Assembly: GCA_048939995.1 (NCBI GenBank)
Contig: JBHLOY010000012.1
Coordinates: 16,281 to 80,280 of the forward strand
DNA: 64,000 nt
Reading direction: 5' to 3'
Source of the DNA: Promethearchaeota archaeon
GTDB lineage: Archaea; Asgardarchaeota; Lokiarchaeia; Sigyniarchaeales; SOKP01
Part shown: one piece after another, positions 25,185 through 63,202 of the stretch
Numbering within the stretch: position 1 is the first letter of the stretch
Layout: every line of letters starts with the position of its first letter
Translations under genes and position numbers: made by a program
The notes under the pieces: generated by a model
What the model was told of the DNA's origin: nothing
What the model saw: only the letters and a program-made list of their open reading frames with translations
The model's database searches: none

Positions 25185-25853
25185 TTATGGATATAATATA
25201 AAGAGATAATTTAAGAGGATACTATAAATGAAATTTGTAGCAAATGCGGTTAACCCTAAAATCCCTACAACCAAAAGATTTTTATGTTTATTTTTAGCTC
25301 CGTCAATTATTAATAAAATAAAAGCATTCAGGTTTACAATAATAAAGCTAAATCTAACAAAATTGTAAATGTTATTTTGTATGATAGGGAAACCGTAAAG
25401 TAAACTTATAACTGCTAATATACTCTCAACAATCATTACAAAACCATAATAACTCATCCAAAGAATCCCAGCAATCATCGAATATACATTAATCTCTTCC
25501 TTATTTCTTTTACCAAAAACATAAAAAAAGACTCCATAAGCAATAAAAAATGGTACAGATGACATTAATTCAAAAATAAGGATATAACTAATTAAAATTA
25601 GGGTCTCAAATGCAGTTTCTGAGTAAGCTTGAACTCCTGGAAGTGCAAAAGGTAATAATTTAAAAATAATTATTAAAATCCCTGCAACCTTTAATAAGTT
25701 TGAAGATTGAATTGTTTCCTTTCGAGATCTATGAACCCTAAATAGGAAAATGGAAATAATAATTGCAAAATTTGCTGAGATTATCGCTGGTACGACAGTA
25801 TAAAGAAAAATAAATAAATTAAGATATTGAAAATAGCCAAATATAATCGTCAT
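25185..25853 (-). CDS. Hypothetical polytopic membrane protein
   Basis: About 6 hydrophobic segments. Confidence 0.65.
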   Translation of the reverse strand: MTIIFGYFQYLNLFIFLYTVVPAIISANFAIIISIFLFRVHRSRKETIQSSNLLKVAGILIIIFKLLPFALPGVQAYSETAFETLILISYILIFELMSSVPFFIAYGVFFYVFGKRNKEEINVYSMIAGILWMSYYGFVMIVESILAVISLLYGFPIIQNNIYNFVRFSFIIVNLNAFILLIIDGAKNKHKNLLVVGILGLTAFATNFIYSILLNYLFILYP

Positions 25854-26223
25854 TTAAAATACCTTTTGAACTTGGATTTACTTAATTATAAGAAAATTCG
25901 ATTAAAAACCTTTTTTATATTATGATTAAATCCAATTATTTTTTAGTTTTATATTATTTAATTTCTCAATCAATTAACGTATAGTTTTCAAAATAGGATA
26001 AAACTACCTATTTCTTTAATTTAACTTTCAGATTTAACTTATAACGCTAAATAACAAATTATTTAAATAAATACAACATAAGAATTAAAATGAGTATAAA
26101 AAAAATAAGCTTCTCGATATTTAATATATTTTCAATATCAGAAGTTTATCAATATCAGTTTTTAAAAAAGCTAAGTAAAGATATAGACATAATTGTTAAT
26201 CAAGAGGTGGATGTGTAAAGAAG

Positions 26224-28167
26224 ATGGAAAAATCTGATACTCAACGGATTGGATACTATGCTTGTCAATGAGGAATAAATATTCGTGGAAAAGTTGATTG
26301 CAGTAAGCTAGTGGAATACGCTAAAGATATAGATGGAGTTGTTGTTTCTAAGCAACACAGCTTCCTCTGCACTGAGAGTGGACAAAACGAAATTATCGAA
26401 GATATCAAAGAAAAGAAACTTAGTTGCATTGTTGTTTCTGCTTGAACTCCACGTACTCATGAACCTGTTTATAGAGGATCGATCGCTAAAACTGATTTAA
26501 ACCCCTATTACTTTCAAATGGTAAATGTGCGTGAACATTGTTCTTGGTGCACTGAAAGTAATGAAGAGGCTTTAGAAAAAGCTAAAATTCTAGTAAAGAG
26601 TGGTATTGAACGTGGAAAGTTATTAGAAGTCGTTCCAATTAGAACTGTTCCTGTAGAGAAGGCCACTTTAGTTGTGGGTGGAGGAATAGCAGGTATGAAT
26701 GCAGCTTTGGACCTTGCAAATCAAGGAATTAAAGTATATTTAGTTGATAAAAATACAACCATTGGAGGTCGAATGGCGCAATTAGACAGAACATTTCCTA
26801 CGGACGACTGTGCTATTTGAATTTGCGGGCCTAAGATGCTTGAAGTAAATCGTAATGAAAATATTGAGATTCTTAGTTATTCAGAAGTTAAAAAAGTCGA
26901 AGGTTATGTGGGTAATTACGAAATTACTATTGAAAAGAAGCCTCGATATATAAATCCAGAAACTTGTAACGGATGTGGAGCCTGCGCAGAAGTCTGTCCA
27001 ACCTACACTACAAATTACTTTGATGAATATTTAGGAGCAAGGAAAACAATTGATATTGCTTTTGGTCAGGCAGTCCCTTTTCTATATGATGTTAATAGAG
27101 ATACTTGCGTGGAATGTTTTAATTGTGTCGATGCTTGTGAGTTAGATGCAATAGATTTCAGCCAAATACCAGAAGAAGTTAAATTTAAAGTTGGAACCAT
27201 TATCATTGCTACTGGTTGGGATATATATGAACCATACGGAGAATACGGCTATGGGGAATATGCCAATGTAATTACCCAATCTCAACTCGAGCGAATGTTG
27301 GCTCCAAATGGACCATTAGAAGGACATGTTCGAAGAATTTCCGATGATAAAAAATTGAATGAGATTGTTTTTATTCAATGTGTTGGAAGTCGAGATACTG
27401 AAAGAACTTACTGTAGCGGTGTCTGTTGCATGCTTGCTTTAAAAAATGGAAAGTTACTTAAGGAAGAATTTCCTGATGCTAATATTACTATTTGTTATAT
27501 TGACATTAGGACTAATGAGAAAGGTTTTGAAGAATATTACCAACGAGCTAAGGATTCGGATATTCGAATGATTCGTGGTAAAGTAGGTGAGATTTCAGAA
27601 GATCCAGATACAAAAAATGTTAAGATACGTGTATATTCGTCGTTAACTGATGAAATAATTAACATCGATGCCGATTTAGTGGTTTTGTCAACAGCAGCAT
27701 TACCATCTAGAGGCACTCAACAAATTGCAAAGGTTTTAAATTTAGATACTGATAAAAATGGATTTCTAACTGAATCCCACTTCGGTTTAATGCCACAAGA
27801 AACAAAAACTAAGGGTATTTTTATAGCTGGATTCGCACAAGGACCTAAAGATATCGCATATTCAGTGTCACAAGCAAGAGCAGCTGCGAGTAAAGTTGCC
27901 GAACTAACTTCTGCTGGTGAAATTGATCTCGAATTAATTGTGGCGGAAGTAGATAAAGATTTCTGCATTTCATGTAAAAGGTGTGAAAAGGAATGCCCAA
28001 AAGGTGCAATAAAGATTCTAGACAAAGAGGGAGCTGTTGTAGATGAAATTAATTGTGATGGATGTGGTATATGTGCTTCCTGCTGCCCAACTCGGGCAAT
28101 TGATATACGATATTACAGAGATTATCAGTTATATGCTGAAATTGAAGCACTACTAGGAGGAGATTAA
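26224..28167 (+). CDS. hdrA: Selenocysteine-containing heterodisulfide reductase subunit A (647 aa; Sec16, Sec74, Sec199)
   Basis: One frame from ATG 26224 to TAA 28167 with TGA at 26269 (RIGYYACQ*GINI), 26443 (VVSA*TPRTHE) and 26818 (FPTDDCAI*ICGPKM). The paralogue at 32617 has Cys at all three (ICHCGINI, VASCTPRTHE, NDCSLCILAPKM). Joins ORF-track fragments 26518-26820 and 26836-28167. Confidence 0.93.
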
Positions 28168-28171
28168 ACAA

Positions 28172-28612
28172 ATGGAGAAAAATTTTAATATATTAATGTT
28201 TGCTTGCTTAAAGTGAGGTTATAGTGCTGCTGATTTAGCTGGTGTCTCTCGTTTAAAGTATACTCCTTCAGTAAAAATCATAAAAGTTAGGTGCACTGGG
28301 CGAGTTGACTTAAAGCACATTTTATATGCTATTAAATCTGGAGCTGATGGGGTAATGATAGTTGGATGACGACCAGATGAATGTCAATTTAAGAATGGCA
28401 ATTTTAAAGCTCAAACTCATGTCGATTTAGCCAATAGAATATTAGAACGCAGAGGATTTGGAAACCAGAGAGTTAATCAATATTGGTTAAGTGGTGCTGA
28501 ATCTGAAAAATTAGTTAAAAGTGTTGAAGATACAATGGAAAAAGTGAGTCGCATGGGTAAAAATCCTATCCACGAAAAAAAAACAAAAAAAGTAAAAAGT
28601 GCAGCCTCTTAG
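28172..28612 (+). CDS. mvhD: Selenocysteine-containing MvhD/VhuD [2Fe-2S] subunit (146 aa; Sec15, Sec66)
   Basis: Absent from the ORF track. MEKNFNILMFACLK*GYSAADLAGVSR...VRCTGRVD...GADGVMIVG*RPDECQF...; TGA at 28214 and 28367 align to Cys in the paralogue at 35720 (FCCNWCSYAGADLAG; GCHIGDCHY). GGAGG SD at 28156; TAG stop. Confidence 0.93.
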
Positions 28613-28652
28613 AATGACTCTTATAAAAAAATATTCGTTATAAGATGACTAA
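28609..28652 (+). promoter_or_regulatory. SECIS element, eukaryote-like kink-turn type
   Basis: TTAG-AAT-GA-C-TCTTATAA-AAAAATATTCG-TTATAAGA-T-GA-CTAA: helix I TTAG/CTAA, 3-nt bulge, tandem G.A/A.G (ATGA at 28614-17, GA at 28647-48), perfect 8-bp helix II, A-rich apical loop. Confidence 0.85.
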
Positions 28653-28724
28653 CCATGTGTTGGTGTAGAGGTATTTTAATAGAATTAAATTTCAATTGTT
28701 AATAAATAAAATAGAAGAAAAAAT

Positions 28725-30224
28725 ATGGTACAGGTTGTGAATGAGAAATCATTCAGTGGAATTTCTCCAAAAAATTTGCTTGAAGCAACATTTAAGGCGT
28801 CCGAAAATTTCCAAATTAGAGCTTTTTATGAATCAAAAAAGGAGATATTAAACACATCCAAATATACCGAAAGTGAATTTTTTGAAATATATGATGCAAT
28901 GTTAGATGCGGAAACAGAAAGAAGGATTGTCTTAGAGAGGCTTAGAGGAAATAAACCATTATTTTTAGAAGAAATAATTAAGCTTATAAAAGAATTTCCT
29001 CCTGATAATGTTGTAAGAGATGTTATCTATTTAAAAGAACAAGGTTATATCGAGGAACAGGTCGAGATTAAAACTAAATTAGTCATAAAAAAAATAAAAG
29101 GAGAAGAAAAAGAAGTAGAAGAAAAAGAATATTTTTATAGATATCAAGTGAAAAATTTATCAGAGGATTTTGTTGAAAAATATTTTGAACCCGTTTCAAT
29201 CGTGTTTGAAGCAGAAGTATGTTGTCAATGTGGTTGGTGTTCTTCTATATGTCCAGTGAATGCAATAAGTGTGACATCAGATTTGCTTGAAATTGATGAA
29301 GACAAATGTATGAAATGTGGTTTATGTTTTTCGGTGTGTCCTCGTTCATTTTCAATTGATCAAGCCTATAAAACTATCCGGCAATTGGATAAAAAACTTA
29401 ATTGGTCAGATAAAATTGGAGGCTATTTTAATGCGTATTCGGGTTCAACAACAAAAGATGCAATAAAAAAGGTGAAACAGGATGGAGGTGTGGTAACCTC
29501 ATTATTAGAATACTTATTAGAGAATAAGTTAGTGGATGCCATAATTGCTGTCAAACATTCAAAGGATTTATGGAAACCTGAACCAGTAATCGTCGATAAT
29601 GTTAAGGATCTTTACATTACTGGTGGTACTAAATATGCAAACGCTGCTACATTATCATTCATCGAAGCAGCTAAAAATTATGAAAGAATTGCTGTCGTGG
29701 GAGTACCTTGTATGATGAAGGCAATTGAAAAAGGTATTCTCTTTCCAAGTGGACTCCCTTTCTTCAAAAATATCAAATATACAATTGGATTATTCTGCAT
29801 GGAATCCTTTCCTTATGAAGGAGTAGTACAATTAACTAAAGACAAATTTGATAAGGATATTAATGATCTAACAAAAATGAATATTGATAGTGGAAAATTC
29901 ATTATTAAATTGAAATCTGGAGAAGAATTGAGTGTAGATTTGAAAGAAATTAAATCATATGCTCGTCATAATTGTCACTATTGTGAAGATTTAACTTCAG
30001 ATTATGCTGATATTTCTGTTGGATCAATAGGTTCTCAAGGAGGTTGGTCTTCAGTTGTTACTCGATCTAAAGAAGGAGATGAGATTTATCAAGGTGCTAT
30101 AGATGCTGGATTGATTGAATCTCAAAGTTTAAAAGATGTAAAACCGGGGCTAGGACTTTTGGAACGAATTGCTGGAACAAAACGAAAAAATTGCAAATTG
30201 ATTGAACTTAAAAGGAGTGAATAA
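28725..30224 (+). CDS. FrhB/FdhB-family protein with N-terminal helical/winged-helix extension and ferredoxin domain
   Basis: CCQCGWCSSICP, CMKCGLCFSVCP, QDGGVVT, VGVPC, IGLFCME, CHYCED...ADISVGSIG. Confidence 0.88.
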   Translation: MVQVVNEKSFSGISPKNLLEATFKASENFQIRAFYESKKEILNTSKYTESEFFEIYDAMLDAETERRIVLERLRGNKPLFLEEIIKLIKEFPPDNVVRDVIYLKEQGYIEEQVEIKTKLVIKKIKGEEKEVEEKEYFYRYQVKNLSEDFVEKYFEPVSIVFEAEVCCQCGWCSSICPVNAISVTSDLLEIDEDKCMKCGLCFSVCPRSFSIDQAYKTIRQLDKKLNWSDKIGGYFNAYSGSTTKDAIKKVKQDGGVVTSLLEYLLENKLVDAIIAVKHSKDLWKPEPVIVDNVKDLYITGGTKYANAATLSFIEAAKNYERIAVVGVPCMMKAIEKGILFPSGLPFFKNIKYTIGLFCMESFPYEGVVQLTKDKFDKDINDLTKMNIDSGKFIIKLKSGEELSVDLKEIKSYARHNCHYCEDLTSDYADISVGSIGSQGGWSSVVTRSKEGDEIYQGAIDAGLIESQSLKDVKPGLGLLERIAGTKRKNCKLIELKRSE

Positions 30225-30225
30225 G

Positions 30226-31338
30226 ATGAGTTCCAAAACTTTTGAGGATTTAATTAAAGAAGTTCATGAAAAGGGTATCTGCCAAGAATGTGGAGGTTGT
30301 GTATCCTTTTGTTCCTCAGCAGAGTATGATGTAATAGGATTAAAGGACCCATACAAGCCTCCTGAATATATTAATAAAGAAAAATGCCTGGAATGTGGAA
30401 TTTGTTACCATATTTGTCCACAAACCCATATCTTAGATGATGATTTAAATGAGATATATAATTTCTCAGACTTTTCAGCAACTCCTATAGGATATTATGA
30501 AGATATCTATTCATGTCAAGCAACAGATCCAGAATTTTTAAAATATGGAACAGATGGAGGAGTTGTTAATTCTATTATTAATTTTCTAATTGAAAAGAAA
30601 ATGGTTGATGGTGCAATAGTATCTAAAACTGATGCTCCATTTTCCAGAGAAGCAACATTTGCTGATAGTAAATACGATCTATTAAAAGCCTCTGGAGCAA
30701 AATTAGATATCACCCCACAATTAAATGAAATACAAAAGTTTTGCACCTACACTCATTCTATTCCCGAATTAAATCATTATAAGTTTAAAAAATTAGCAAT
30801 AGTTGGAACTCCATGTCAAATTTATACTATCAGGTGTATGCAAGATTTAGGAGTTACTCCTTCAGAAAATGTTGAAATTTGTCTTGGATTATTTTGTTAT
30901 GAAAACTTTCTATTTGAAAAATTTCAAATTGAGAAATTTGAAAAAGATTTTAATATAAGATTTAGAGACATTGTTAAGATAAATATTAAGGAAGATGTGA
31001 TTTTTAAATTACGGAGTGAGGCTCCTACAGAAAAAATTGTACATGTTCCTTTTAATCATTTGAATGATTATATGCGTCCAGCTTGTAATGCTTGTGGGGA
31101 TTTTACTAATATCTTTGCGGATATATCATTTGGAGGTTTAGGGTCTCAAGATAAATATACTACTGTAATAACTCGAACTAAAAAAGGAAAAGAAATCTTT
31201 TCTAAAGTTGTTAATGAAGGAGTAATTACTAGCAAAGAATTAGATGCAACTAAAAGAAAGAAAATGCTAGATTCAATTATAGAATATTCGAAATTAAAAG
31301 TATTGCGTAAAGAAAAGTTTATGCAGAAATTAACATAA
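30226..31338 (+). CDS. Second FrhB/FdhB-family protein
   Basis: CQECGGCVSFC, CLECGICYHICP, TDGGVV, VGTPC, LGLFCYE, CNACGD...ADISFGG; ATG 30226 follows the upstream stop. Confidence 0.88.
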   Translation: MSSKTFEDLIKEVHEKGICQECGGCVSFCSSAEYDVIGLKDPYKPPEYINKEKCLECGICYHICPQTHILDDDLNEIYNFSDFSATPIGYYEDIYSCQATDPEFLKYGTDGGVVNSIINFLIEKKMVDGAIVSKTDAPFSREATFADSKYDLLKASGAKLDITPQLNEIQKFCTYTHSIPELNHYKFKKLAIVGTPCQIYTIRCMQDLGVTPSENVEICLGLFCYENFLFEKFQIEKFEKDFNIRFRDIVKINIKEDVIFKLRSEAPTEKIVHVPFNHLNDYMRPACNACGDFTNIFADISFGGLGSQDKYTTVITRTKKGKEIFSKVVNEGVITSKELDATKRKKMLDSIIEYSKLKVLRKEKFMQKLT

Positions 31339-31341
31339 AAT

Positions 31342-32598
31342 GTGAGAAGTATAACAGAATCGAAAAGAGATATTGAAAGGAAAAAATTCTTTGGTGATAC
31401 ATTAGATTATTTAGATAAAGTTTACGAATCTAACCTAAGAAATTTATTAAAAAAATGTTATCAATGTGGACGTTGTAGTAGTGTCTGCCAACTAAGCAAA
31501 GTTCAAAAATTTCCCCCAAGTAGGATTATTCAGTTAATCTTGGAAGGATTTGAAGATAAAGTATTGAATTCTGGGGTTTTATGGGATTGCCTTACATGTA
31601 ACCAATGTTTAAAAGACTGCCCAGAAAAAATTAATTTCGCAGATATCGTTAGAATTGCACGATATAAAATGAGACACGAAGCTAATCAAAAATCTGACGA
31701 TTTAGTTGCTCATAAGGGCATTTATACTACAATAGCTGAAATTATGAGTAGACCATACATTACACCAGAAAGATCATTAGAATGGATACCAAAAGATTGC
31801 GGCGTGTCAGATAAAGGAGATATACTTTATTATATTGGATGTTTACCTTTCTATGAATATGAATTTGAAGGTTCAAATAATATTGCTACAAGTACCATAA
31901 AACTCTTATGCCAAATTGAAAAGAAATCAATAGTAGTTTTGAAAGAAGAAAGTTGTTGTGGGCATGATATTTACTGGGGACAGGGCAAATTGAAGACTTT
32001 TATCAAATTGGCAAAGAAAAATTTAGATAAATTTGAAAAAGCGGGAGTCTCTACAATAATCACCGCATGTGCTGAATGTTATAGAACTCTTAAAATTGAT
32101 TATTCGAATATTTTTGAGAATTTTTCATCTAAGTTTAAAGTAAAGCATATTATTGAATACATTTATGATAAATGGAAACAAAATGAAATAGCATTTAAGG
32201 GACCAGTAGAAGAGGATAAAGATACCACATTTACCTACCATGATCCCTGTAGGTTGAGTAGATTTTTACCTGAGGAGGTGAATTTAACTAAAAAAATTAG
32301 AGAAATTTTTAACGAATTAATGAAGTTAGGATTCAACTTTAAAGAAATGAAACACAATCAAGAAAATTCTCTTTGTTGTGGAGTAAATTCATGGATGAAT
32401 TGTAATGAAAAATCTAAAGCACTCAGATATAAACGTATGCTAGAGGCAAAATCAGTAGCAACTATAATGGTTACTTCGTGCCCGAAATGTGAGCTACACT
32501 TTAAATGTCTTCAAAATGATTTTGAAGATATTGCAAGTATTAAAATCTTGGATTTTTCAGAGTTTATTATAAACAATGTTGAGATAATTGGTACCTAA
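31342..32598 (+). CDS. hdrD: HdrD-like (HdrC+HdrB fusion) Fe-S/CCG-domain protein
   Basis: CYQCGRCSSVC, CLTCNQCLKDCP, two CCG domains (GC...CCG...CAEC; HDPC...CCG...CPKC). Confidence 0.85.
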   Translation: MRSITESKRDIERKKFFGDTLDYLDKVYESNLRNLLKKCYQCGRCSSVCQLSKVQKFPPSRIIQLILEGFEDKVLNSGVLWDCLTCNQCLKDCPEKINFADIVRIARYKMRHEANQKSDDLVAHKGIYTTIAEIMSRPYITPERSLEWIPKDCGVSDKGDILYYIGCLPFYEYEFEGSNNIATSTIKLLCQIEKKSIVVLKEESCCGHDIYWGQGKLKTFIKLAKKNLDKFEKAGVSTIITACAECYRTLKIDYSNIFENFSSKFKVKHIIEYIYDKWKQNEIAFKGPVEEDKDTTFTYHDPCRLSRFLPEEVNLTKKIREIFNELMKLGFNFKEMKHNQENSLCCGVNSWMNCNEKSKALRYKRMLEAKSVATIMVTSCPKCELHFKCLQNDFEDIASIKILDFSEFIINNVEIIGT

Positions 32599-32616
32599 AA
32601 GGTGAGAGATAACAGA

Positions 32617-35600
32617 ATGGAAGGGTCTGTTTTAGTAATAGGCGGTGGTATTGCCGGAATCCAAACTTCATTAGATTTAACAGAATTGGGGTTTAAAGTA
32701 TATCTAGTGGAGAGAAACCCATCAATTGGAGGCCGCATGGCTCAACTTGATAAAACTTTTCCAACAAATGATTGTAGCTTATGTATTTTAGCTCCAAAAA
32801 TGGTCGAAGTCTTTAGAAATTCAAATATAGAACTCATGACATATCATGAAGTATTAAGCATATCTGGGGAAGCGGGAGATTTTACAGTAAATATTTTGAA
32901 AAAACCAAGATACATAGACGAAACTAAATGTAAGGGTTGTGGTGATTGTTCTCAGCGCTGTCCTAAAATAGAAGTACCAAATCTATTTGATATGAAATTA
33001 GGTAAAAGAAAATCCATTTATATCCCCTTTCCACAAGCTGTTCCCCCTATTTATCTAATTGATCCTGAAATCTGTCTTAAATTAACTAAGGGCGTATGTG
33101 GTGTATGTGAGAAAGTATGTAAAGCTGAAGCAATCGATTATGAACAGAAGCCTAAAGAAATTCAAATCAAAGTGGGAGCGATTGTAGTTGCTACTGGTTT
33201 TGATATGCCCGCAGAGCGTTTAACTTCCAGATGGGGTTATCACTATAAAAATGTAGTCAGCGCTTTAGAATATGAAAGAATTCTGTGTGCTTCTGGTCCA
33301 TTTGGTGGACATGTACTACGTCCAAGTGATGAAACTGAGCCCGAAAATATAGCTTTTATACAATGTGCAGGATCACGGGATCTACATGAAAATATTCCTT
33401 ATTGTTCAAGTGTGTGTTGTATGTATACAGCAAAGGAAGCTATTATCACAAAGGAACATTCTGAAAAGTCTAAGTGTTATGTTTTTAGACACGATATTAG
33501 AGCCTATGGTAAAAATTTCTATGAATTCACCCAAAGAGCACAAGATGAATACGGTGTGCAATACTTTCAGACTAAAGTAAGTAAAGTCGAAGAGGACCCC
33601 GATAATAATGATTTAATCATGCATTATGAAGATTTAAAAACAGGAGAATTTAAAAATTTTAGAAGTAACTTGGTAGTATTAGCAACACCATTAGTTCCAT
33701 CACAAGGCACCGTGGAAATGGCAAAAATTTTAGGGGTTGAATTAGATAAGTATGATTTTTTTAAAGAAAGCTCTTATTTCAATAAATCACTATCGTCTAG
33801 GGAAGGTATATATTTAAGCGGTTTCTGCCAAGGACCAATGGATATTCCAGAAACCGTGGCAGATGCGAGTGGAGTAGCATCTCAAATCGCTTCATTGCTT
33901 AATTCTGTAAAGTTTAAAGGCATAAAAGAAAAACTTCGAGAAAAGTCTGAGTTAGAGGTTAAAATTTCTGATGAACCTCGAATTGGAGTGTTAATATGTC
34001 ATTGTGGGATAAATATCGGTAAATATATTGATGTTTCCGAAGTTGTTGAATATGTAAAAACTTTGCCTTATGTAGCTCATTGTGAAGCTAATTTGTATTC
34101 TTGTTCAAGTGATTCTCAAGCAAGAATTAAAGAAATGATTGAAGAATATAATCTAAATAGATTTATTGTTGCTTCTTGTACGCCTCGAACTCATGAAGCT
34201 CTGTTCCAAGAAACTTGTCAAGAGGCAGGTTTGAATAAATATTTGTTCGAAATGGTAAATATTCGTGATCAATGTTCTTGGGTTCATATGAATGAATATG
34301 AATTTGCTACCGAAAAAGCTAAAGACTTAATTAGAATGGCTATTGCAAAAGCACGGTTATTAAAGCCTCTTAAAGAAGCGCGATTAGATATAACTCCAAC
34401 AGCCTTAATAATTGGTGGTGGAGTTTCGGGTATGACTGCAGCTTTAAATATTTCAAATCAGGGATTTAAAGTATTTTTAGTGGAGAAAGAAAACCAATTA
34501 GGCGGAAATTTAAATCGATTAAATATTTTGTACCCCATTCATGAAGATGCTTCAAAATTTTTAAAAGATATAACGGGTCAAGTAAAAAGCAATAAAAATA
34601 TTGAATTATATTTAAACTCTCAAATTAAGAGTATAAAAGGTTATATTGGTAATTATGATGTTTCAATCGTCGACTCAAAACAGAAAATTCATGATTTAAA
34701 AATTGGTACGATTATAGTAGCAACTGGGGCTCAAGAATTAAAACCAACGGGGGTATTTCAATATAATGAAAAAAATGAAAATGTTATTACTCAGCTTGAG
34801 TTGGAAAAAAAACTAAAAAGCAAAGATTTATCATGGTTAGATAAAATTGAAAGAGCAGCAATAATTTTATGCGTAAACGCAAGGCAAAAGGAGGGAATTA
34901 CATATTGTTCTAACGTTTGCTGTGGAGTAAGTATTAAGAATCTAAGTCTGTTAAAAGAATTAAAGCCTGAAATTGAGATTGTTGTTCTTTACAGAGATTT
35001 TCAAATGGCTAAAAAAGAATTTGAGGAGTATTATCGTGAGCGTAGGAAGAATGCTATTTTTCTTAGATACGATTTAGAAAACTTGCCAAAAATTGATAAA
35101 TTAAATGATAAACCAGAAAAGTACAGAATTAGTTTATTTGATACAAATTTACAAGATGATATTAATTTTGATACAGATCTAATTATATTATCAACTCCTA
35201 TGGTTCCTAATAACAATTTGACAGAATTAGCAAAAATGCTAAAAGTACCTCTAGATAAAAATGGATTTTTTTTGGAAGCACATGTAAAGCTTCGACCTTT
35301 AGATTTTGCTACTGATGGAATATTTTTAAGTGGCTGTGCTCAATGGCCGAAAAATGTTCAAGATTCTATCGCTCAAGCAAATGGTGCTGCTGGAAGGGCT
35401 AGTAGATTTTTAAGCGCAAAAACGATAACAACTTCTGGCTTAATAGCAGAAGTGAATACAAATAGATGCATTGGTTGTGGAAAATGCGAATCTGTTTGTC
35501 CATATAATGCGATTGAGATTAAAGAAGCATTAATGGAGTTCGAAGAGATCAGTATAAAAGTAGCAAAATCTTATATAAATTCAGCCTTATGTAAGGGATG

Positions 35601-35700
35601 TGGTACTTGTGCTGCTACTTGTCCTAATGGTGCTATTTCAGTTAAACATTATGACTTTGATCAAATTTATGCAATGATAGAATCATATTTATTAGAATAG
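32617..35700 (+). CDS. hdrA: Large HdrA-family protein with two FAD modules (Cys type)
   Basis: Two GGG.(A/S)G FAD motifs, QLDKTFPTNDC, internal CHCG/CTPRTHE/CSWVH domain, two CS.VCC motifs, inserted and C-terminal ferredoxins; ATG 32617 preferred. Confidence 0.92.
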   Translation: MEGSVLVIGGGIAGIQTSLDLTELGFKVYLVERNPSIGGRMAQLDKTFPTNDCSLCILAPKMVEVFRNSNIELMTYHEVLSISGEAGDFTVNILKKPRYIDETKCKGCGDCSQRCPKIEVPNLFDMKLGKRKSIYIPFPQAVPPIYLIDPEICLKLTKGVCGVCEKVCKAEAIDYEQKPKEIQIKVGAIVVATGFDMPAERLTSRWGYHYKNVVSALEYERILCASGPFGGHVLRPSDETEPENIAFIQCAGSRDLHENIPYCSSVCCMYTAKEAIITKEHSEKSKCYVFRHDIRAYGKNFYEFTQRAQDEYGVQYFQTKVSKVEEDPDNNDLIMHYEDLKTGEFKNFRSNLVVLATPLVPSQGTVEMAKILGVELDKYDFFKESSYFNKSLSSREGIYLSGFCQGPMDIPETVADASGVASQIASLLNSVKFKGIKEKLREKSELEVKISDEPRIGVLICHCGINIGKYIDVSEVVEYVKTLPYVAHCEANLYSCSSDSQARIKEMIEEYNLNRFIVASCTPRTHEALFQETCQEAGLNKYLFEMVNIRDQCSWVHMNEYEFATEKAKDLIRMAIAKARLLKPLKEARLDITPTALIIGGGVSGMTAALNISNQGFKVFLVEKENQLGGNLNRLNILYPIHEDASKFLKDITGQVKSNKNIELYLNSQIKSIKGYIGNYDVSIVDSKQKIHDLKIGTIIVATGAQELKPTGVFQYNEKNENVITQLELEKKLKSKDLSWLDKIERAAIILCVNARQKEGITYCSNVCCGVSIKNLSLLKELKPEIEIVVLYRDFQMAKKEFEEYYRERRKNAIFLRYDLENLPKIDKLNDKPEKYRISLFDTNLQDDINFDTDLIILSTPMVPNNNLTELAKMLKVPLDKNGFFLEAHVKLRPLDFATDGIFLSGCAQWPKNVQDSIAQANGAAGRASRFLSAKTITTSGLIAEVNTNRCIGCGKCESVCPYNAIEIKEALMEFEEISIKVAKSYINSALCKGCGTCAATCPNGAISVKHYDFDQIYAMIESYLLE

Positions 35701-35719
35701 AAACAAAATGTGAACTTAT

Positions 35720-36157
35720 ATGCCAAAAGCAAAAACTAAATCAAAAACCGTGCAATTTAATCCCGAAATTTTAGTGTTTTGTTGTAATTGGTGTAGTTAT
35801 GCAGGGGCAGATTTAGCTGGGGTTTCAAGGTTCCAATACCCTCCTAATATGAGAATAGTTAGAGTTATGTGCTCGGGAAGAGTAGATCCTGCATTTGTTA
35901 TAAAGGCTTTAAAGGAAGGGGCCGATGGTATATTAATAACTGGTTGCCATATTGGTGATTGTCATTATATTTCAGGGAATGAATATGCAAAAGAGCGATT
36001 CGAAAGATTACATAGTATTATTATTAAGCAACTTGGTATTAATGAAAAAAGAGTAAGGTTAGAATGGGTTTCTGCTTCAGAAGGAAAGCGTTTTGCAGAT
36101 TTGATTACAGAATTTACAAATCAAATCAAAGAATTAGGACCACTTAAAATACTTTAA
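35720..36157 (+). CDS. mvhD: MvhD [2Fe-2S] subunit (Cys type)
   Basis: FCCNWCSYAGADLAG, MCSGRVDP, GCHIGDCHY, WVSASEG. Confidence 0.95.
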   Translation: MPKAKTKSKTVQFNPEILVFCCNWCSYAGADLAGVSRFQYPPNMRIVRVMCSGRVDPAFVIKALKEGADGILITGCHIGDCHYISGNEYAKERFERLHSIIIKQLGINEKRVRLEWVSASEGKRFADLITEFTNQIKELGPLKIL

Positions 36158-54406: not shown

Positions 54407-56299
54407 TTATAAAATATCTATTTTCTGAAGATAAAGGGTCGATACAGTAAAGCAAACAATTGTAATTGATAACAGTATTAATATAATGTATATAGGATCA
54501 ATCTCTAAAGTAGTAATTGTAAACCCTAATAATTCAGAATAAGGTGATAGAATGCTACTTAACCCTCCACCAGTATTCGAAATCCAAAAGCTTCCCAACT
54601 TTTCAAAATAATAGGAATATGAAAAGAGAAGTGGCCATTCATGACGAAAAAGAATTGGAAGAAAGCTAGTCAATGTAGGGAGAATCATCACGATTAATAT
54701 TGGTAAAAATATTGCAAGACCTGCTTTTTTAAATAGAGTGGAAAATGAAATGCCTATCGCTGTTAAAGGAATCAATGTTAGGAGACCAATAAGAAATACA
54801 AATCCTCCTATTGATAGAATATCTGGAATATATATTGCATCAACATAAGAAATTGCCCCGATTGTAAATGAAATAGATGTCGCAACCATAACAACAATAA
54901 TAATAAAGAGATATGCTAGAATTTTACCCCAAAGATATTCCCAACGTCTTACTGGTTTACTTAGAAACCAGGAAAGTGATCCATTTCTTTTTGTATTTAT
55001 AATACCTGTAGATGCAAATGCTATTGAAAATGCAATTCCAAAATATAAAAGATAATAACTTAGGATCATATTCACCAACATTCTAATTTGATCAATCCCA
55101 ATCCCCCCTAATAACCGGTTCATCACTCCAAATATGAAATATAATATTATACCTGGTGCGACTCCTATTAAACTGAAAATAATAGTTTTGATTTTACTAT
55201 CAGCTAATTCTTTCTTGAATATAATCCCCAAAGTACTATAATATCTGCGATTTTGTTTGAACCGCAAAAAAATAAGAGTAATTACAATAACTAGCCCAAT
55301 AACTCCCGTTCCTATTCCAAAATATATCCAGTTAAATGAAGGATAGCTAATTATTTCAATTGATATCATTGAAGTATAGTTATTTCCAATGCTATCGATA
55401 CTTGTAAGAGAGATATTATGAACACCTGTAGATGTAAAATTAATGATTAAACTACCAATGTATCTTTGATAAAACCCTGAACCATTAATTTCTCTGTACA
55501 AATGCCCATCAACGAAGATATGGAAGTTAGTATTGAGATATCCATCAATTAAGGGACTATCCCACCCAATCCATGTAAAATTTATTGAACGTTCAGAAGT
55601 TCTATATAAACCACTAAATAGCAATACGCTTAAACTATAAGGTCCAGTGATATAGTGTAGGGGTATAGCTAAATCATTAAGAAATAAAATATTAGAATTT
55701 TCTATCAAAGTAATAGAGGAAGATACTCCATTTAACATAACGTTAGTAATTGAAGAATTCAAAATTGAAATTGTTCCACCTATTCCAAATTCATTAAGTT
55801 GAAATAATGAAGATTCCGTTATTGAGAGATTAGCAGAATCAAATTTCCATATGGTAGTCAATGGACTATTACTTGAAAGAATCTCCAAAATTGATGAATC
55901 ACGACATTCAATACTTCCCCCAACTGTAGAATTGTTGATAGTTACTTCTGAAGAATCTGAAATAATTATATTGACAGTAATATTTGACTTTTCTTTTATG
56001 GATAGTTTTCCTGTATTGAACATGTAAATACTATTAATAACTGTGGTATTGATAAGGGAAACATTGGCATTCCCCATTATAAAAATGCTTTCATAGATAA
56101 TTTCATCTTGACGGACTTCATTTCCACTATCAAATACAATTGATGTTTTTAAGGATTTATCTAATTCATTTGAAGAGTGACCATTTAGACCTTTTAACAT
56201 AGAGACATTTTGAACAATTAGGCATAATATAATTATTACAATTAAAGATAAAATTGAAATTTTAGCCTCTTTAATGAATGTATAATTTCTATTCAACAT
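54407..56299 (-). CDS. ABC-2 type permease fused to an N-terminal extracellular beta-helix-like domain
   Basis: N-terminal TM, I..S.I-rich repeats, second TM, then IFKKEL...LSKPVRRWEYLWGKIL ABC-2 permease. Confidence 0.82.
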   Translation of the reverse strand: MLNRNYTFIKEAKISILSLIVIIILCLIVQNVSMLKGLNGHSSNELDKSLKTSIVFDSGNEVRQDEIIYESIFIMGNANVSLINTTVINSIYMFNTGKLSIKEKSNITVNIIISDSSEVTINNSTVGGSIECRDSSILEILSSNSPLTTIWKFDSANLSITESSLFQLNEFGIGGTISILNSSITNVMLNGVSSSITLIENSNILFLNDLAIPLHYITGPYSLSVLLFSGLYRTSERSINFTWIGWDSPLIDGYLNTNFHIFVDGHLYREINGSGFYQRYIGSLIINFTSTGVHNISLTSIDSIGNNYTSMISIEIISYPSFNWIYFGIGTGVIGLVIVITLIFLRFKQNRRYYSTLGIIFKKELADSKIKTIIFSLIGVAPGIILYFIFGVMNRLLGGIGIDQIRMLVNMILSYYLLYFGIAFSIAFASTGIINTKRNGSLSWFLSKPVRRWEYLWGKILAYLFIIIVVMVATSISFTIGAISYVDAIYIPDILSIGGFVFLIGLLTLIPLTAIGISFSTLFKKAGLAIFLPILIVMILPTLTSFLPILFRHEWPLLFSYSYYFEKLGSFWISNTGGGLSSILSPYSELLGFTITTLEIDPIYIILILLSITIVCFTVSTLYLQKIDIL

Positions 56300-57242
56300 G
56301 CTTCAGCTCCACACTTTTATTTTCCTTCTCCAAAGCTTTCATAAAAATTTGTTCAATCTCTAACCCACTAGATCGAAATTCATTTACAATTATATTATTC
56401 TTTAGTGAAATCTCGGCGATAACCTGCCAAACTTTTGCTAAATTATGCGTTTCAATAACGAGGGTATCATATTCTTCAGTTATTTTTGATACAAAAGGCT
56501 TGAGAGAATTGCGAAATAAATCAATATTTGGGCTAATTTTCACTAATTTAACTCCAAGCTTTTCATTTAGTTCTTGAATAGATCCTTCCATAATAAGTTG
56601 ACCTCGATCAATGATCCCAATCGAATCAGCATTCATTTTTTGAATTTCTGGAAGTATATGCGTCGAAATCAACATTGTTTTTCCCTCTTGACGTAGATCT
56701 TTAAGTAAATCAATCATTTGGTTTCGACCAAGAGGATCGAGATTAGAAGTAATTTCATCTAATATTAATAATTCGGGATCATTCATTAAAGCTTGAGCAA
56801 TTCCTATTCTCTGCTTCATCCCCGCAGAAAACTTTGCAATTACACGATGTCTTGCATCTGACAATTCAACCAGTCGTAACAAATTTGTAATACGACTAGT
56901 CATTTCTTGTTTGGATAAGCGAAAAACTGAACCAATATATATGAGCAATTTCTCTGCAGTCATTCCCATAAAGTAAGTCGGATTTTCTGGGACATAGCCA
57001 ATACGCTTATGAATGTTCATTTTCTCATGACTGGTAATATCCTCTCCGAACAATTCAATTCTCCCTGATGTAGGAAAGAGCGAACCAATGAGCATTTTAA
57101 TCGTAGTTGTTTTTCCAGCACCATTTGGTCCCAAAAATCCATAGATTCCTTTATTTACCGTTATATTCAGATTATTAACTGCAACAGTCTCAAGACCAAA
57201 TCTTTTAGTTAAATTAAATGTTTGAATAATTGGATTCTTCAT
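56289..57242 (-). CDS. ABC transporter ATP-binding protein
   Basis: GPNGAGKTT, FSAGMKQR, LILDE, STH. Confidence 0.95.
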   Translation of the reverse strand: MKNPIIQTFNLTKRFGLETVAVNNLNITVNKGIYGFLGPNGAGKTTTIKMLIGSLFPTSGRIELFGEDITSHEKMNIHKRIGYVPENPTYFMGMTAEKLLIYIGSVFRLSKQEMTSRITNLLRLVELSDARHRVIAKFSAGMKQRIGIAQALMNDPELLILDEITSNLDPLGRNQMIDLLKDLRQEGKTMLISTHILPEIQKMNADSIGIIDRGQLIMEGSIQELNEKLGVKLVKISPNIDLFRNSLKPFVSKITEEYDTLVIETHNLAKVWQVIAEISLKNNIIVNEFRSSGLEIEQIFMKALEKENKSVELKHVE

Positions 57243-57302
57243 TATTATATCAATAAAAATACATAGTATAAATAGAATATTTATTTTAAAAATTTTAAAT
57301 TC

Positions 57303-58448
57303 TCAGACTTTAATATATTTTGAATGCGTAATGACCTCAACTTTACCATTCCATATTAGAAAATCATTTTCAAGTCTTTGTCCTCCTAATCCTTGTTTGA
57401 AAACGCTAGGTTCGATTGTAAAGACCATTCCCTCTTGAAATCTCTCTTCTTTCCAATGCTTTAATGAATATTCATCAGTTGGTTTACGACTTATAATTGG
57501 AGAATCATGAACAGTTAAACCTAGCCCATGACCCAACGCGTAAGGCATAGAAAATCCCTCTTTCTTTAATATCTGCTCTACTCTATCATGAACTTTCCAT
57601 AAAGGTACATCTAAGTCAATCATTTCAATCGCAGCTTCATATGCTTTTATCGTCAGATTATTCATTTTAATCTGTTCATTTGATAACTTTCCAAAACTAA
57701 TTGGCACAGTAATGTCTGAATTATAGCCTTGATATTTAGCTCCAAAGTCAATTAATGCTAAACCTGGTAAACTAAATTTCTGATCACTAGCATAAGGATA
57801 TTGATGAAGTTCATGAGCACGGGATGAATTTGCAACGAGCGGTTCAAAAGCAACATCATCAGCACCGTAATCTGCCATTTTCTTCCTTATGAGAAAAGAT
57901 AATTCTTTTTCTGTCCCGTTGGGTGTATTCTCACAAAAATTCCTAATCTCTCTAATAGTTTTCGTCCCTATTTGAGCAGCAATCTTTAATTGTTTGATCT
58001 CTATTTCACTTTTTGTTGCTCTTAACTCACCTAAAAATCTAGAAATCTGAATTGGCTCCTTGTAAAATTTAACACCTGAAATTAATGCTTTCATTCTAAC
58101 AATAAAACCGTATGGGATTGATTCATGAGTCCCGATTGTAATCGTAGCTTTTTTCCACCTTTTCTCGAATAAATCTTTCATTACCAGAAACATATTATAT
58201 TTAAAATTCGAATAATCTACGAGTTCATCTACTTCAGAATGTTTTTTAGCTAAAGCGACATCCCACGGAATCAAAATTGATTCACCACTTGAAGTTATTA
58301 ATACAAAGGCATCTGTAGGATGTCCTGAAAGATATTGTAAATTAATATTTTCACTATCTTCAAAATCAGATATTAAGAGAATATCAATTTGTCTTTCTTG
58401 CAAAAATTGTAAAAGAAATTCAAATTTCTCATCTGTAATAAATCTCAT
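57303..58448 (-). CDS. Xaa-Pro aminopeptidase/prolidase (M24B)
   Basis: K...EI, DFGA...Y.SDIT, GHGLGL.VHD, TIEP, RLEND; ATG 58448 preferred. Confidence 0.9.
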   Translation of the reverse strand: MRFITDEKFEFLLQFLQERQIDILLISDFEDSENINLQYLSGHPTDAFVLITSSGESILIPWDVALAKKHSEVDELVDYSNFKYNMFLVMKDLFEKRWKKATITIGTHESIPYGFIVRMKALISGVKFYKEPIQISRFLGELRATKSEIEIKQLKIAAQIGTKTIREIRNFCENTPNGTEKELSFLIRKKMADYGADDVAFEPLVANSSRAHELHQYPYASDQKFSLPGLALIDFGAKYQGYNSDITVPISFGKLSNEQIKMNNLTIKAYEAAIEMIDLDVPLWKVHDRVEQILKKEGFSMPYALGHGLGLTVHDSPIISRKPTDEYSLKHWKEERFQEGMVFTIEPSVFKQGLGGQRLENDFLIWNGKVEVITHSKYIKV

Positions 58449-58616
58449 TTTATAACATTTTTTTAAATTTGATTGAAAATTTATATATATTTTCATTTTA
58501 AACTTCCTCTAGGAATTTAAATTGACAGAATAAAAATATTTGAAAAAATCGATTACAAGGGACAGGATCAGTTTGATTAGACGTTATTAGCTAAAATAGA
58601 AAAAAAGAGACTTCTT

Positions 58617-61354: not shown

Positions 61355-61672
61355 AATCCACCCAATAAATATTAATTTTAATCTGAATAATATTCGGTAC
61401 AATAAAAAATTATTTTATTAATGATTTAGATAAATTAATGTCAGTTATATTTTGTTTAAGGAATATAATGATTCACATTTTTAATTATATTGAATTGAAG
61501 ATCTTAGTGAAAGGAAAATCTAATAGTGTTCGATTATATCACAATTATATTGAACAAGTTTCCTAAAAATGAATTCTTATCCCTATGGTATTTAAATATA
61601 GTATTTCACTTTCTTACTTAAAAATTCTAATAGCTATTAAGAGTATTTAATAAAATAGGGGACTAAATTATA

Positions 61673-62749
61673 ATGAACGTAAAATTTAAAGAAATATATG
61701 CAGAAGCATTGGTTATTCTAATTTTAATTATAGTTTCATTTATATTAATCTATTATGTCGAAATTATCCTTAGAACAACTCTCCTTATTGCTCATTTTTT
61801 CTACTTCCCTTCTATTTTGTCCTGTATATGGTGGAAAAAACGAGGTTTAGTAGTTCCCATTTTATTAACTATTCTATTAATAACTATTCACAGTATTGCA
61901 CTTGAAGATTTTTTTAATCCAGATTTAATTAATAATTTGTTGAGAGGATTTTCATTAATACTCGTCTCAATAGTCGTTGCATATCTATCAGAAAAAATTT
62001 CTAAAAAGGAAATAGAATTAAATGATATTATAAACGATTTGAAGCGCTCAAATGAAGATTTACAACAATTTGCTTATGTTGCTTCACATGATCTACAAGA
62101 ACCTTTACGAGCAATTACTAGTTTTTCTCAACTTCTCGAAGATAAATTTTGGGATAAATTAGATCAAGATGGCAAGGATTTCATTTCCTTTATTACAGAT
62201 GGTGCTAAAAAAATGAATACTCTCATCAAAGATCTATTAACATATTCACGGATTACGACACATGCTAAACCTCCTAAATTGATTGATCTTGAGATCATTT
62301 TAAAAGAAGCCATATTTAATTTACATGAAGCAATCAAAGAGAGTAGTGCAAATATAACTTATGATAAAATGCCAACACTGAAAGTTGATAAAACTCAATT
62401 TGTGCAACTTTTTCAAAATCTCATAAGCAATGGTATAAAATTTCGAAGAGAAGAACCACCAAGAATACATATAGGTGCAAAATTGCTTAATAAAGACTGG
62501 ATATTTTCTGTATCAGATAATGGGATTGGGATTGAAGCTAAATATTTTGATCGTATTTATAATATTTTTTATAGATTACATACTAAAGAAGAATATCCCG
62601 GTACAGGAATAGGGTTACCTATATGTAAAAAAATTATTAATAGATATGGTGGAAAAATATGGGTAAAATCAGAGATAGGTAAAGGATCGACTTTCTTTTT
62701 TAATATTCCAGTTAAAAAAACTAAAAGTACATTAATCAAGAGGGAGTGA
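61673..62749 (+). CDS. Membrane sensor histidine kinase (Cph1/BphP-type kinase core)
   Basis: 3-4 TM segments; SNEDLQQFAYVASHDLQEPLR, QNLISNGIKF, DNGIGI, GTGIGL, GKGSTF. Confidence 0.93.
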   Translation: MNVKFKEIYAEALVILILIIVSFILIYYVEIILRTTLLIAHFFYFPSILSCIWWKKRGLVVPILLTILLITIHSIALEDFFNPDLINNLLRGFSLILVSIVVAYLSEKISKKEIELNDIINDLKRSNEDLQQFAYVASHDLQEPLRAITSFSQLLEDKFWDKLDQDGKDFISFITDGAKKMNTLIKDLLTYSRITTHAKPPKLIDLEIILKEAIFNLHEAIKESSANITYDKMPTLKVDKTQFVQLFQNLISNGIKFRREEPPRIHIGAKLLNKDWIFSVSDNGIGIEAKYFDRIYNIFYRLHTKEEYPGTGIGLPICKKIINRYGGKIWVKSEIGKGSTFFFNIPVKKTKSTLIKRE

Positions 62750-62755
62750 GGATAT

Positions 62756-63202
62756 ATGATAAATATAAAAAGAAAAAAAAGTTTCAATATTTTACTTGTT
62801 GAAGACAATTTAGCAGATATTCGTCTTACAGAGGAGGCTATTAGCAAAAGCCAAATCATTAGTAATTTAAATGTTGTTAAGGACGGAGTCGAAGCAATTA
62901 ATTTCTTAAAAAAAGTAGGAAAATATTCTAAGATGACCAGACCTGATTTGATCTTGTTAGATTTAAATTTACCAAAGAAGAATGGTCTTGAAGTTCTAAA
63001 GGAGATTAAACAAGATGATCACTTAAAACGAATTCCTATCATTGTTCTAACTATTTCAGGTGCTGAAGAAGATTTAGTAAAAGCATATGATCTTCATGCT
63101 AACTGTTTAATAAATAAACCAATAGATGTTAAAGATTTTTATAGAATTATGAAAATAATGGAAGAATTTTGGTTTAGGATAGTTAAACTTCCTGAAGATT
63201 AA
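62756..63202 (+). CDS. Single-domain response regulator (Rcp1-like)
   Basis: LLVEDN, PDLILLDLNLP, IPIIVLT, AN..I.KP, FW. Confidence 0.93.
   Translation: MINIKRKKSFNILLVEDNLADIRLTEEAISKSQIISNLNVVKDGVEAINFLKKVGKYSKMTRPDLILLDLNLPKKNGLEVLKEIKQDDHLKRIPIIVLTISGAEEDLVKAYDLHANCLINKPIDVKDFYRIMKIMEEFWFRIVKLPED

Follow-up and report, generated by a model that had tools for sequence, protein, structure and literature searches.

Can a reading frame interrupted by three TGA codons encode a complete enzyme subunit? The question is raised by positions 26224 to 28167 of a 64,000-nucleotide stretch of DNA (hereafter the window, meaning that whole stretch; contig JBHLOY010000012.1 of assembly GCA_048939995.1) from a Promethearchaeota archaeon, whose genome assembly of 3.75 Mb in 38 contigs is 98% complete. 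A sequence-only reading of the window had proposed that the frame is a hidden hdrA gene, encoding subunit A of heterodisulfide reductase (Hdr), in which each TGA specifies selenocysteine (Sec, U) in place of a conserved Cys. Our analysis makes it very probable that the locus encodes an intact HdrA, that UGA codons 16, 74 and 199 are decoded as Sec, and that recoding runs through one shared selenocysteine insertion sequence (SECIS); a role of Sec as a ligand of an iron-sulfur (Fe-S) cluster is a further prediction. The gene and its recoded or recodable codons are as follows.

26224..28167, forward strand: hdrA coding sequence, 647 codons and a TAA stop, a single frame when TGA is read as U
26269..26271, forward strand: UGA for predicted Sec16, motif C14-Q-U16-G-I-N, in the N-terminal Fe-S domain; aligns with Cys13 of 5ODC_A
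26368..26370, forward strand: codon 49, here TGC (Cys); among the orthologues, a fourth site that can carry Sec
26443..26445, forward strand: UGA for predicted Sec74, motif S-A-U74-T-P-R-T-H-E-P, in the N-terminal Fe-S domain; aligns with Cys71 of 5ODC_A
26818..26820, forward strand: UGA for predicted Sec199, motif D-D-C196-A-I-U199-I-C, in the thioredoxin-reductase-like domain that binds flavin adenine dinucleotide (FAD); aligns with Cys197 of 5ODC_A

With TGA read as U, the frame contains no stop and no frameshift, and TGA stands at codons 16, 74 and 199. A phmmer search against the PDB places the product collinear over its full length with solved HdrA chains (9sfi_A, E 1e-201, query residues 7-645; 5odc_A, E 2e-195), and U199 aligns with a residue written X, that is Sec, in 9sfi_A. 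Pfam recognizes a FAD/NAD Rossmann domain and two Fer4 domains. The NCBIfam HdrA2 model gives 768 bits over profile positions 1-641 of 777, a score that falls under the 1100-bit cut-off because the model also spans a fused MvhD part, which is here the separate next gene. The product matches the Cys sets of HdrA: four in the N-terminal domain (N-domain), the CxxC by the FAD, two CxxCxxCxxxC motifs of the inserted ferredoxin, C-x10-C-x3-CC, and two four-Cys sets of the C-terminal ferredoxin. The cofactor positions (14, 16, 49, 74, 196, 199, 248-258, 295-305, 386/397/401/402, 581-591 and 611-621) all hold Cys or Sec, without exception across 23 congeneric orthologues. Judged from its sequence, 26224-28167 is an intact hdrA, encoding the flavin-based electron-bifurcating subunit A of a heterodisulfide-reductase-type complex.

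Several claims of the sequence-only reading are confirmed at this point. The three in-frame TGAs at 26269, 26443 and 26818 do fall in one 647-residue HdrA frame; the third of them is the methanococcal Sec position (DC..U), as the alignment with 9sfi_A indicates; and the two extra ones, Sec16 and Sec74, do lie in the N-terminal Fe-S domain. It had also been anticipated that automatic annotation would split the gene and lose the first 98 amino acids. Read with the standard code, the gene does fall into separate open reading frames (ORFs) at 26518-26820 (100 aa) and 26836-28167 (443 aa), and the first 98 codons are in no listed ORF.

Whether the TGAs are functional codons or lesions can be judged from their history. 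Orthologues were taken from 23 species genomes of the same genus and from 80 further loci in public metagenome-assembled genomes (MAGs; Promethearchaeota/Promethearchaeia archaeon). Those of the same genus show 80-94% identity and carry 3, 4 or 5 TGAs each; codons 16, 74 and 199 are TGA in 23/23, and codon 49 reads TGA in 18 and TGY in the remaining 5, a group that includes the window copy. The wider set gives the following counts.

Codon 16: TGA in 78/78, TGT or TGC in 0
Codon 74: TGA in 79/79, TGT or TGC in 0
Codon 199: TGA in 81/81, TGT or TGC in 0
Codon 49: TGA in 55, TGT or TGC in 24, no other codon

This constancy is found although synonymous sites between the window copy and its orthologues are near saturation (proportion of synonymous differences, pS, ~0.75). 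As set against the fixed TGA of the other three sites, codon 49 needs eight or more changes between Sec and Cys, by parsimony on the gene tree. Four Sec is the commonest orthologue form (51/81), the window copy having three. The equivalent of codon 49 is also Sec in a B-type HdrA paralogue of another genome. The ratio of nonsynonymous to synonymous differences (pN/pS) is 0.24 over codons 17-73, 0.12 over codons 75-198 and 0.13 over codons 205-647. The segments between the TGAs, which would be untranslated if TGA were a stop, are thus constrained by purifying selection as strongly as the remainder of the gene. The true stop of orthologous hdrA genes is TAA in 65 and TAG in 14 (TGA in 0), and here it is TAA. 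The sequence-only reading had called three chance nonsense mutations on conserved Cys codons implausible, and the invariance of TGA at such divergence bears this out. Among the observations that would refute it, it had named reads with TGT or TGC and relaxed selection around the TGAs; instead, TGA is present in about 80 independent assemblies, and pN/pS is comparable along the gene.

Decoding of UGA as Sec calls for a signal in the message, and a candidate is found just downstream, behind a second predicted selenoprotein gene.

28172..28612, forward strand: vhuD/mvhD coding sequence, 146 codons and a TAG stop, beginning 4 nt past the hdrA stop
28214-28216, forward strand: in-frame TGA, predicted Sec15 of VhuD
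28367-28369, forward strand: in-frame TGA, predicted Sec66 of VhuD
28614..28648, forward strand: Loki-type (eukaryote-like) SECIS hairpin, 2 nt past the vhuD stop, made up of AUGA (28614-28617), a nine-position stem (28618-28626 / 28638-28646) and GA (28647-28648)
28627-28637, forward strand: apical loop of the SECIS, 11 nt, A-rich, AAAAAUAUUCG

The downstream gene scores 149 bits with the NCBIfam VhuD model, and both of its Sec align with residues written X in 9sfi_K, a solved VhuD chain. In 79/81 cases the orthologous hdrA is followed by a vhuD that has the first Sec, and the second Sec is seen in 72 of those. The SECIS architecture recurs in 77/77 orthologous loci for which downstream sequence is included. 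Of these, 73 have a loop of 11 nt; 64 close the core with GA and 13 with AA. Among 46 distinct sequences, 8/9 pairs of the stem change on both sides, and 94% of cells are paired, compared with 39-56% in a control in which the partner strand was slid. The folding energy of the hairpin is unexceptional (z = -1.3), so the support for the SECIS comes from covariation and not from energy. An Rfam scan of 25800-29000 with an E-value threshold returned chance matches only and no SECIS family.

A covariance model built from the orthologous sequences has one match in the window (28608-28656, 67 bits) and five in the genome, two of which lie directly after the vhuD of Sec-type paralogues on contigs 8 and 21. 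It gave no match at a further Sec-type hdrA-vhuD pair on contig 17 (74340-76256, reverse strand). Two other matches, at contig 17 215780-215828 (forward strand, 43.8 bits) and contig 36 9827-9875 (forward strand, 30.8 bits), are away from the hdrA-vhuD pairs that we examined and probably mark other selenoprotein genes, perhaps of the VhuU/FrhA or Prx-like kind.

The genome should also encode the apparatus for making and delivering Sec, as the sequence-only reading had proposed to check, and a tRNA-Sec candidate, PSTK, SepSecS, EFsec and SelD are all encoded.

SepSecS: 482 bits, over the cut-off
EFsec: 480 aa; best family selB at 237 bits (cut-off 242), 100 bits above any EF-Tu/EF-1α model
PSTK: 162 bits (cut-off 290), the best family for that protein
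SelD: 195 bits (cut-off 125), with a Sec of its own in an HGUSCK motif
tRNA-Sec candidate: contig 23, 113473-113630, ~80 nt upstream of SepSecS and 4 kb from EFsec

The tRNA-Sec candidate emerged from a search limited to the neighbourhoods of EFsec and SepSecS. Its UCA anticodon stands on a 6-bp stem, its variable arm is long, 8/9 positions of its acceptor stem are paired, and its discriminator G is followed by CCA; it carries two inserts, one of ~33-40 nt in the region of the D-arm and one of ~30-32 nt in the T-loop. A T-loop intron has been reported for the tRNA-Sec of Lokiarchaeota. When the inserts were spliced out in silico, 1418/14529 variants were called tRNA-SeC(tca) by ARAGORN, and none was given another identity. 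Run on the unmodified genome, ARAGORN reported no tRNA-Sec whether or not introns were searched for, and 9-21 tRNAs in all; the count of nine without intron search suggests that the tRNA genes of this genome are intron-rich. With the Rfam tRNA-Sec model, the sole match in the whole genome was a tRNA-Arg (33.5 bits).

Elsewhere in this genome TGA is an ordinary stop, closing 254/1552 long frames, which argues that there is no general reassignment of the codon. Two other places in the window where a frame runs through TGA were considered as recoded genes and rejected. At 56292-58508 (reverse strand) an M24 peptidase is followed by an ABC ATPase, separate genes that share one frame, and at 61667-63199 (forward strand) a histidine kinase is followed by a response regulator, again separate genes. 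These two TGA junctions serve as controls within the window, TGA acting there as a normal stop.

The evidence can now be set against other explanations of the locus. The most obvious is a pseudogene, in which three TGY-to-TGA mutations inactivated a copy of hdrA while Cys-type paralogues do the job. Each such change takes a single base, and the genome does hold at least four full-length all-Cys HdrA paralogues. However, decay would not be expected to leave the same three TGAs in 78-81 orthologues of independently assembled genomes, with about three quarters of synonymous sites different, nor a frame clear of frameshifts and other stops, nor a pN/pS upstream of and between the TGAs equal to that of the downstream part, and there would be no call for the SECIS and the Sec machinery; we regard this explanation as hardly credible. 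That hdrA is a genuine selenoprotein gene and not a pseudogene is supported by these comparisons of sequences. Another explanation keeps the gene intact and has near-cognate or reassigned decoding insert one of the standard amino acids, Cys or Trp, at UGA. The paralogues do have Cys at these positions, and sequence alone cannot tell which residue is inserted. Yet TGA ends many long frames of this genome as well as neighbouring genes in the window, a conserved and covarying SECIS lies exactly where Loki-type selenoprotein genes carry one, the complete Sec pathway is encoded down to a SelD that itself contains Sec, and the canonical site is modelled as Sec in the solved Methanococcus structure. 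Decoding as Cys or Trp is therefore very unlikely, if somewhat less so than a pseudogene.

A partial, selenium-dependent recoding is the least improbable of the alternatives, though still unlikely, and it would supplement Sec decoding of an intact HdrA rather than replace it. At low selenium, translation would stop at UGA16, and truncated products starting at Met99 or Met205, or the all-Cys paralogues, would take over. In-frame ATGs after the TGAs yield the two standard-code ORFs given above, the same cluster contains, 4.4 kb further downstream, a fused hdrA-mvhD set with Cys throughout, and Methanococcus is reported to exchange its Sec and Cys isoforms according to the supply of selenium (PMC13518236, PMC11097638). 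Against such a sensing switch, a product without the N-domain or without the Sec of the FAD site would lose conserved cofactor ligands, and no regulatory element was identified at the locus.

Under our preferred explanation, Sec decoding of an intact HdrA, hdrA and the two-Sec vhuD would most likely be translated from one bicistronic mRNA. The single kink-turn-type SECIS after vhuD would recruit EFsec with Sec-tRNA(Sec) to all five UGAs, which lie 2345, 2171, 1796, 400 and 247 nt upstream of the SECIS AUGA. The sequence data themselves show the integrity of the gene, the conserved TGAs, the structure of the SECIS and the Sec machinery; selenium incorporation, the bicistronic use of one SECIS and the ligand role are each steps that we infer.

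What the selenium might do differs between the sites. Next to the bifurcating FAD, Sec199 occupies the second position of the CxxC/U pair. Sec16 and Sec74 belong to the mobile N-terminal domain, which holds HA3, the [4Fe-4S] 'shuttle' cluster that takes the low-potential electron (PMC13580544, PMC13518236). When the N-domain modelled by AlphaFold is superposed on 5ODC_A, the TM-score is 0.95 and the root-mean-square deviation 1.1 Å. Within the N-domain, Cys/Sec is invariant at positions 14, 16, 49 and 74 and nowhere else, both among 14 paralogous N-domains of this genome and in an alignment of 19 sequences. A [4Fe-4S] cluster requires four ligands. With four conserved Cys/Sec available, at least one of Sec16 and Sec74 would thus bind iron even if Cys197 of a partner protomer supplies one ligand, and if the partner Cys197 supplies none, both would do so. 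At least one of the two residues, and probably both, would accordingly be a predicted ligand of HA3. The fuller proposal, that selenolates ligate HA3 directly (Sec16 and Sec74 here, three of the four N-domain ligands in four-Sec orthologues), seems to us to have about an even chance of being right. Extra TGAs at codons 298, 301 and 614, found in 1, 3 and 2 loci, respectively, fall inside the ferredoxin CxxCxxCxxxC motifs and give five-Sec HdrA. Since these positions are beyond doubt [4Fe-4S] ligands, the HdrA family apparently tolerates Sec in that role.

A 2016 paper, which predates any HdrA structure, stated that the extra Sec positions are not cluster ligands (PMC4989117). That statement is probably outdated, and the later papers that we consulted do not revisit it; a literature search for the HA3 ligands by their Cys numbers returned unrelated papers only. 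The 2026 structural papers themselves call the role of Sec in HdrA and VhuD unresolved (PMC13518236, PMC13580544). We also asked whether the HdrA N-domain is homologous to VhuD/MvhD, such that Sec16 and Sec74 would correspond to Sec15 and Sec66 of VhuD. BLASTP between the two was negative, and hhalign gave a weak match (probability 8%, P 0.004) with the four Cys/Sec paired in register. Foldseek with the N-domain returned MvhD chains at TM ~0.5 among other flavodoxin-like folds. The equivalence is suggestive only, and we do not use it as evidence.

A number of points weigh against the explanation given here, some against Sec decoding and others against the ligand role. The organism is known as a MAG only, and the presence of selenium in the protein is predicted from its genes. 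PSTK and EFsec score under the NCBIfam equivalog cut-offs, and the unspliced tRNA-Sec candidate, at 26.7 bits, is under the Rfam gathering score and has approximate splice boundaries. The predicted ligand role of Sec16 and Sec74 comes from counting conserved Cys. One study reads Cys197 as a ligand of the N-terminal cluster of the partner protomer (PMC9012536), at odds with the 2026 papers. Of these, one cryo-EM study describes the canonical site as a Cys-Sec selenylsulfide relay (PMC13518236), and the other finds that the Cys pair at this site holds an unidentified ligand (PMC13580544).

The gene is one of several of its kind in the genome, which has four HdrA paralogues with in-frame TGA (3, 2, 2 and 2) in addition to the all-Cys ones. 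The three two-TGA copies have Sec at the equivalents of 16 and 199. Sec at 74 is confined to the window copy, every other HdrA paralogue of the genome having Cys there. The Sec-type hdrA-vhuD pair opens a same-strand cluster, which continues over 28725-36157 with the following members.

28725-30224 and 30202-31338, forward strand: two FrhB-like genes
31342-32598, forward strand: HdrCB/HdrD-like protein of 418 aa, with a ferredoxin and two CCG domains
32602-35700, forward strand: fused double HdrA, 1032 aa
35720-36157, forward strand: MvhD, all-Cys

No separate hdrB or hdrC is adjacent to hdrA in the cluster, and no hydrogenase large or small subunit is encoded in 28725-36157. The first half of the fused HdrA has the FAD domain with C-S-L-C (aa 57/60), the equivalent of C196/U199. 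Its second half has the N-domain with C-H-C, S-C-S and S-C-T-P-R-T-H-E, and is without the CxxC pair. The fusion thus has the same motifs as the window HdrA, but with Cys for Sec and with the CxxC pair and the N-domain in separate halves. The sequence-only reading was right that this paralogue keeps Cys at all three sites, although they are split over the two halves. A complementary two-half arrangement is known from the fused HdrA of anaerobic methanotrophic (ANME) archaea and Moorella (PMC9012536).

How much of this is new? The sequence-only reading had left the novelty of the exact Sec positions to a literature check, and novelty did not survive it, since the positions are on record from 2016 (PMC4989117) and 2024 (PMC11227280). 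For Lokiarchaeota, Mariotti et al. 2016 described multi-Sec HdrA with up to four Sec in five positions, an obligatory hdrA-vhuD tandem with one SECIS after vhuD for up to six UGAs over ~2 kb, and the avoidance of UGA as the hdrA stop (PMC4989117). The Asgard selenoproteome published in 2024 in ISME J lists 1439 selenoproteins, HdrA being among the most abundant (PMC11227280). Its supplement, which writes Sec as X, gives for HdrA of Lokiarchaeia the motifs CQ-X-GIN 95 times, SA-X-TPR 57 times, DDCAI-X-ICG 35 times and, for the fourth site, FL-X-TESG 25 times, and three-Sec HdrA with Cys at the fourth site is found there as well. The kind, the arrangement and the positions of this HdrA are already known.

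Compared with the Loki system (PMC4989117, PMC11227280), nothing at the present locus differs in kind. Gene order, the single strand, the very short spacer (4 nt here) and the two-Sec VhuD are the same, as are the several Sec at conserved Cys of HdrA, which always include the canonical position near residue 200; in the window copy there are three, codon 49 specifying Cys. The SECIS likewise agrees with the lokiSECIS (PMC4989117), being downstream of vhuD only and having the AUGA...GA core, the 9-bp stem and the 11-nt A-rich loop. With the Sec-HdrA of Methanococcales and Methanopyrus (9sfi_A; M. maripaludis Hdr-Vhu-Fwd, PMC13518236) the gene shares its architecture, the CxxU by the FAD and the two VhuD Sec positions. 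However, methanogen HdrA has a single Sec and an archaeal-type SECIS, whereas the Asgard HdrA described here has two more predicted Sec in its N-domain and a Loki-type SECIS common to two cistrons, and its Asgard host, unlike those archaea, is not a methanogen. The all-Cys HdrA of Methanothermococcus thermolithotrophicus (5ODC_A) has the same domains and cofactor Cys motifs, but Cys where Sec is predicted here.

The locus nonetheless has consequences for how such genomes are read. Standard gene callers split hdrA, miss vhuD altogether and leave an apparent 550-bp gap, and with hdrA split and vhuD missed, metabolic reconstructions from Asgard MAGs will under-count intact Hdr/Mvh modules. To the published picture the present comparison adds some 80 genomes of one genus, in which three Sec sites never vary and the fourth has changed state eight or more times. 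It also sharpens a question of mechanism: is there selenium on the iron-sulfur cluster that accepts the low-potential electron in flavin-based bifurcation? If so, HdrA of these archaea would contain a natural selenium-ligated iron-sulfur cluster at the very place where the bifurcated low-potential electron is received, and selenium would tune the low-potential branch of electron bifurcation.

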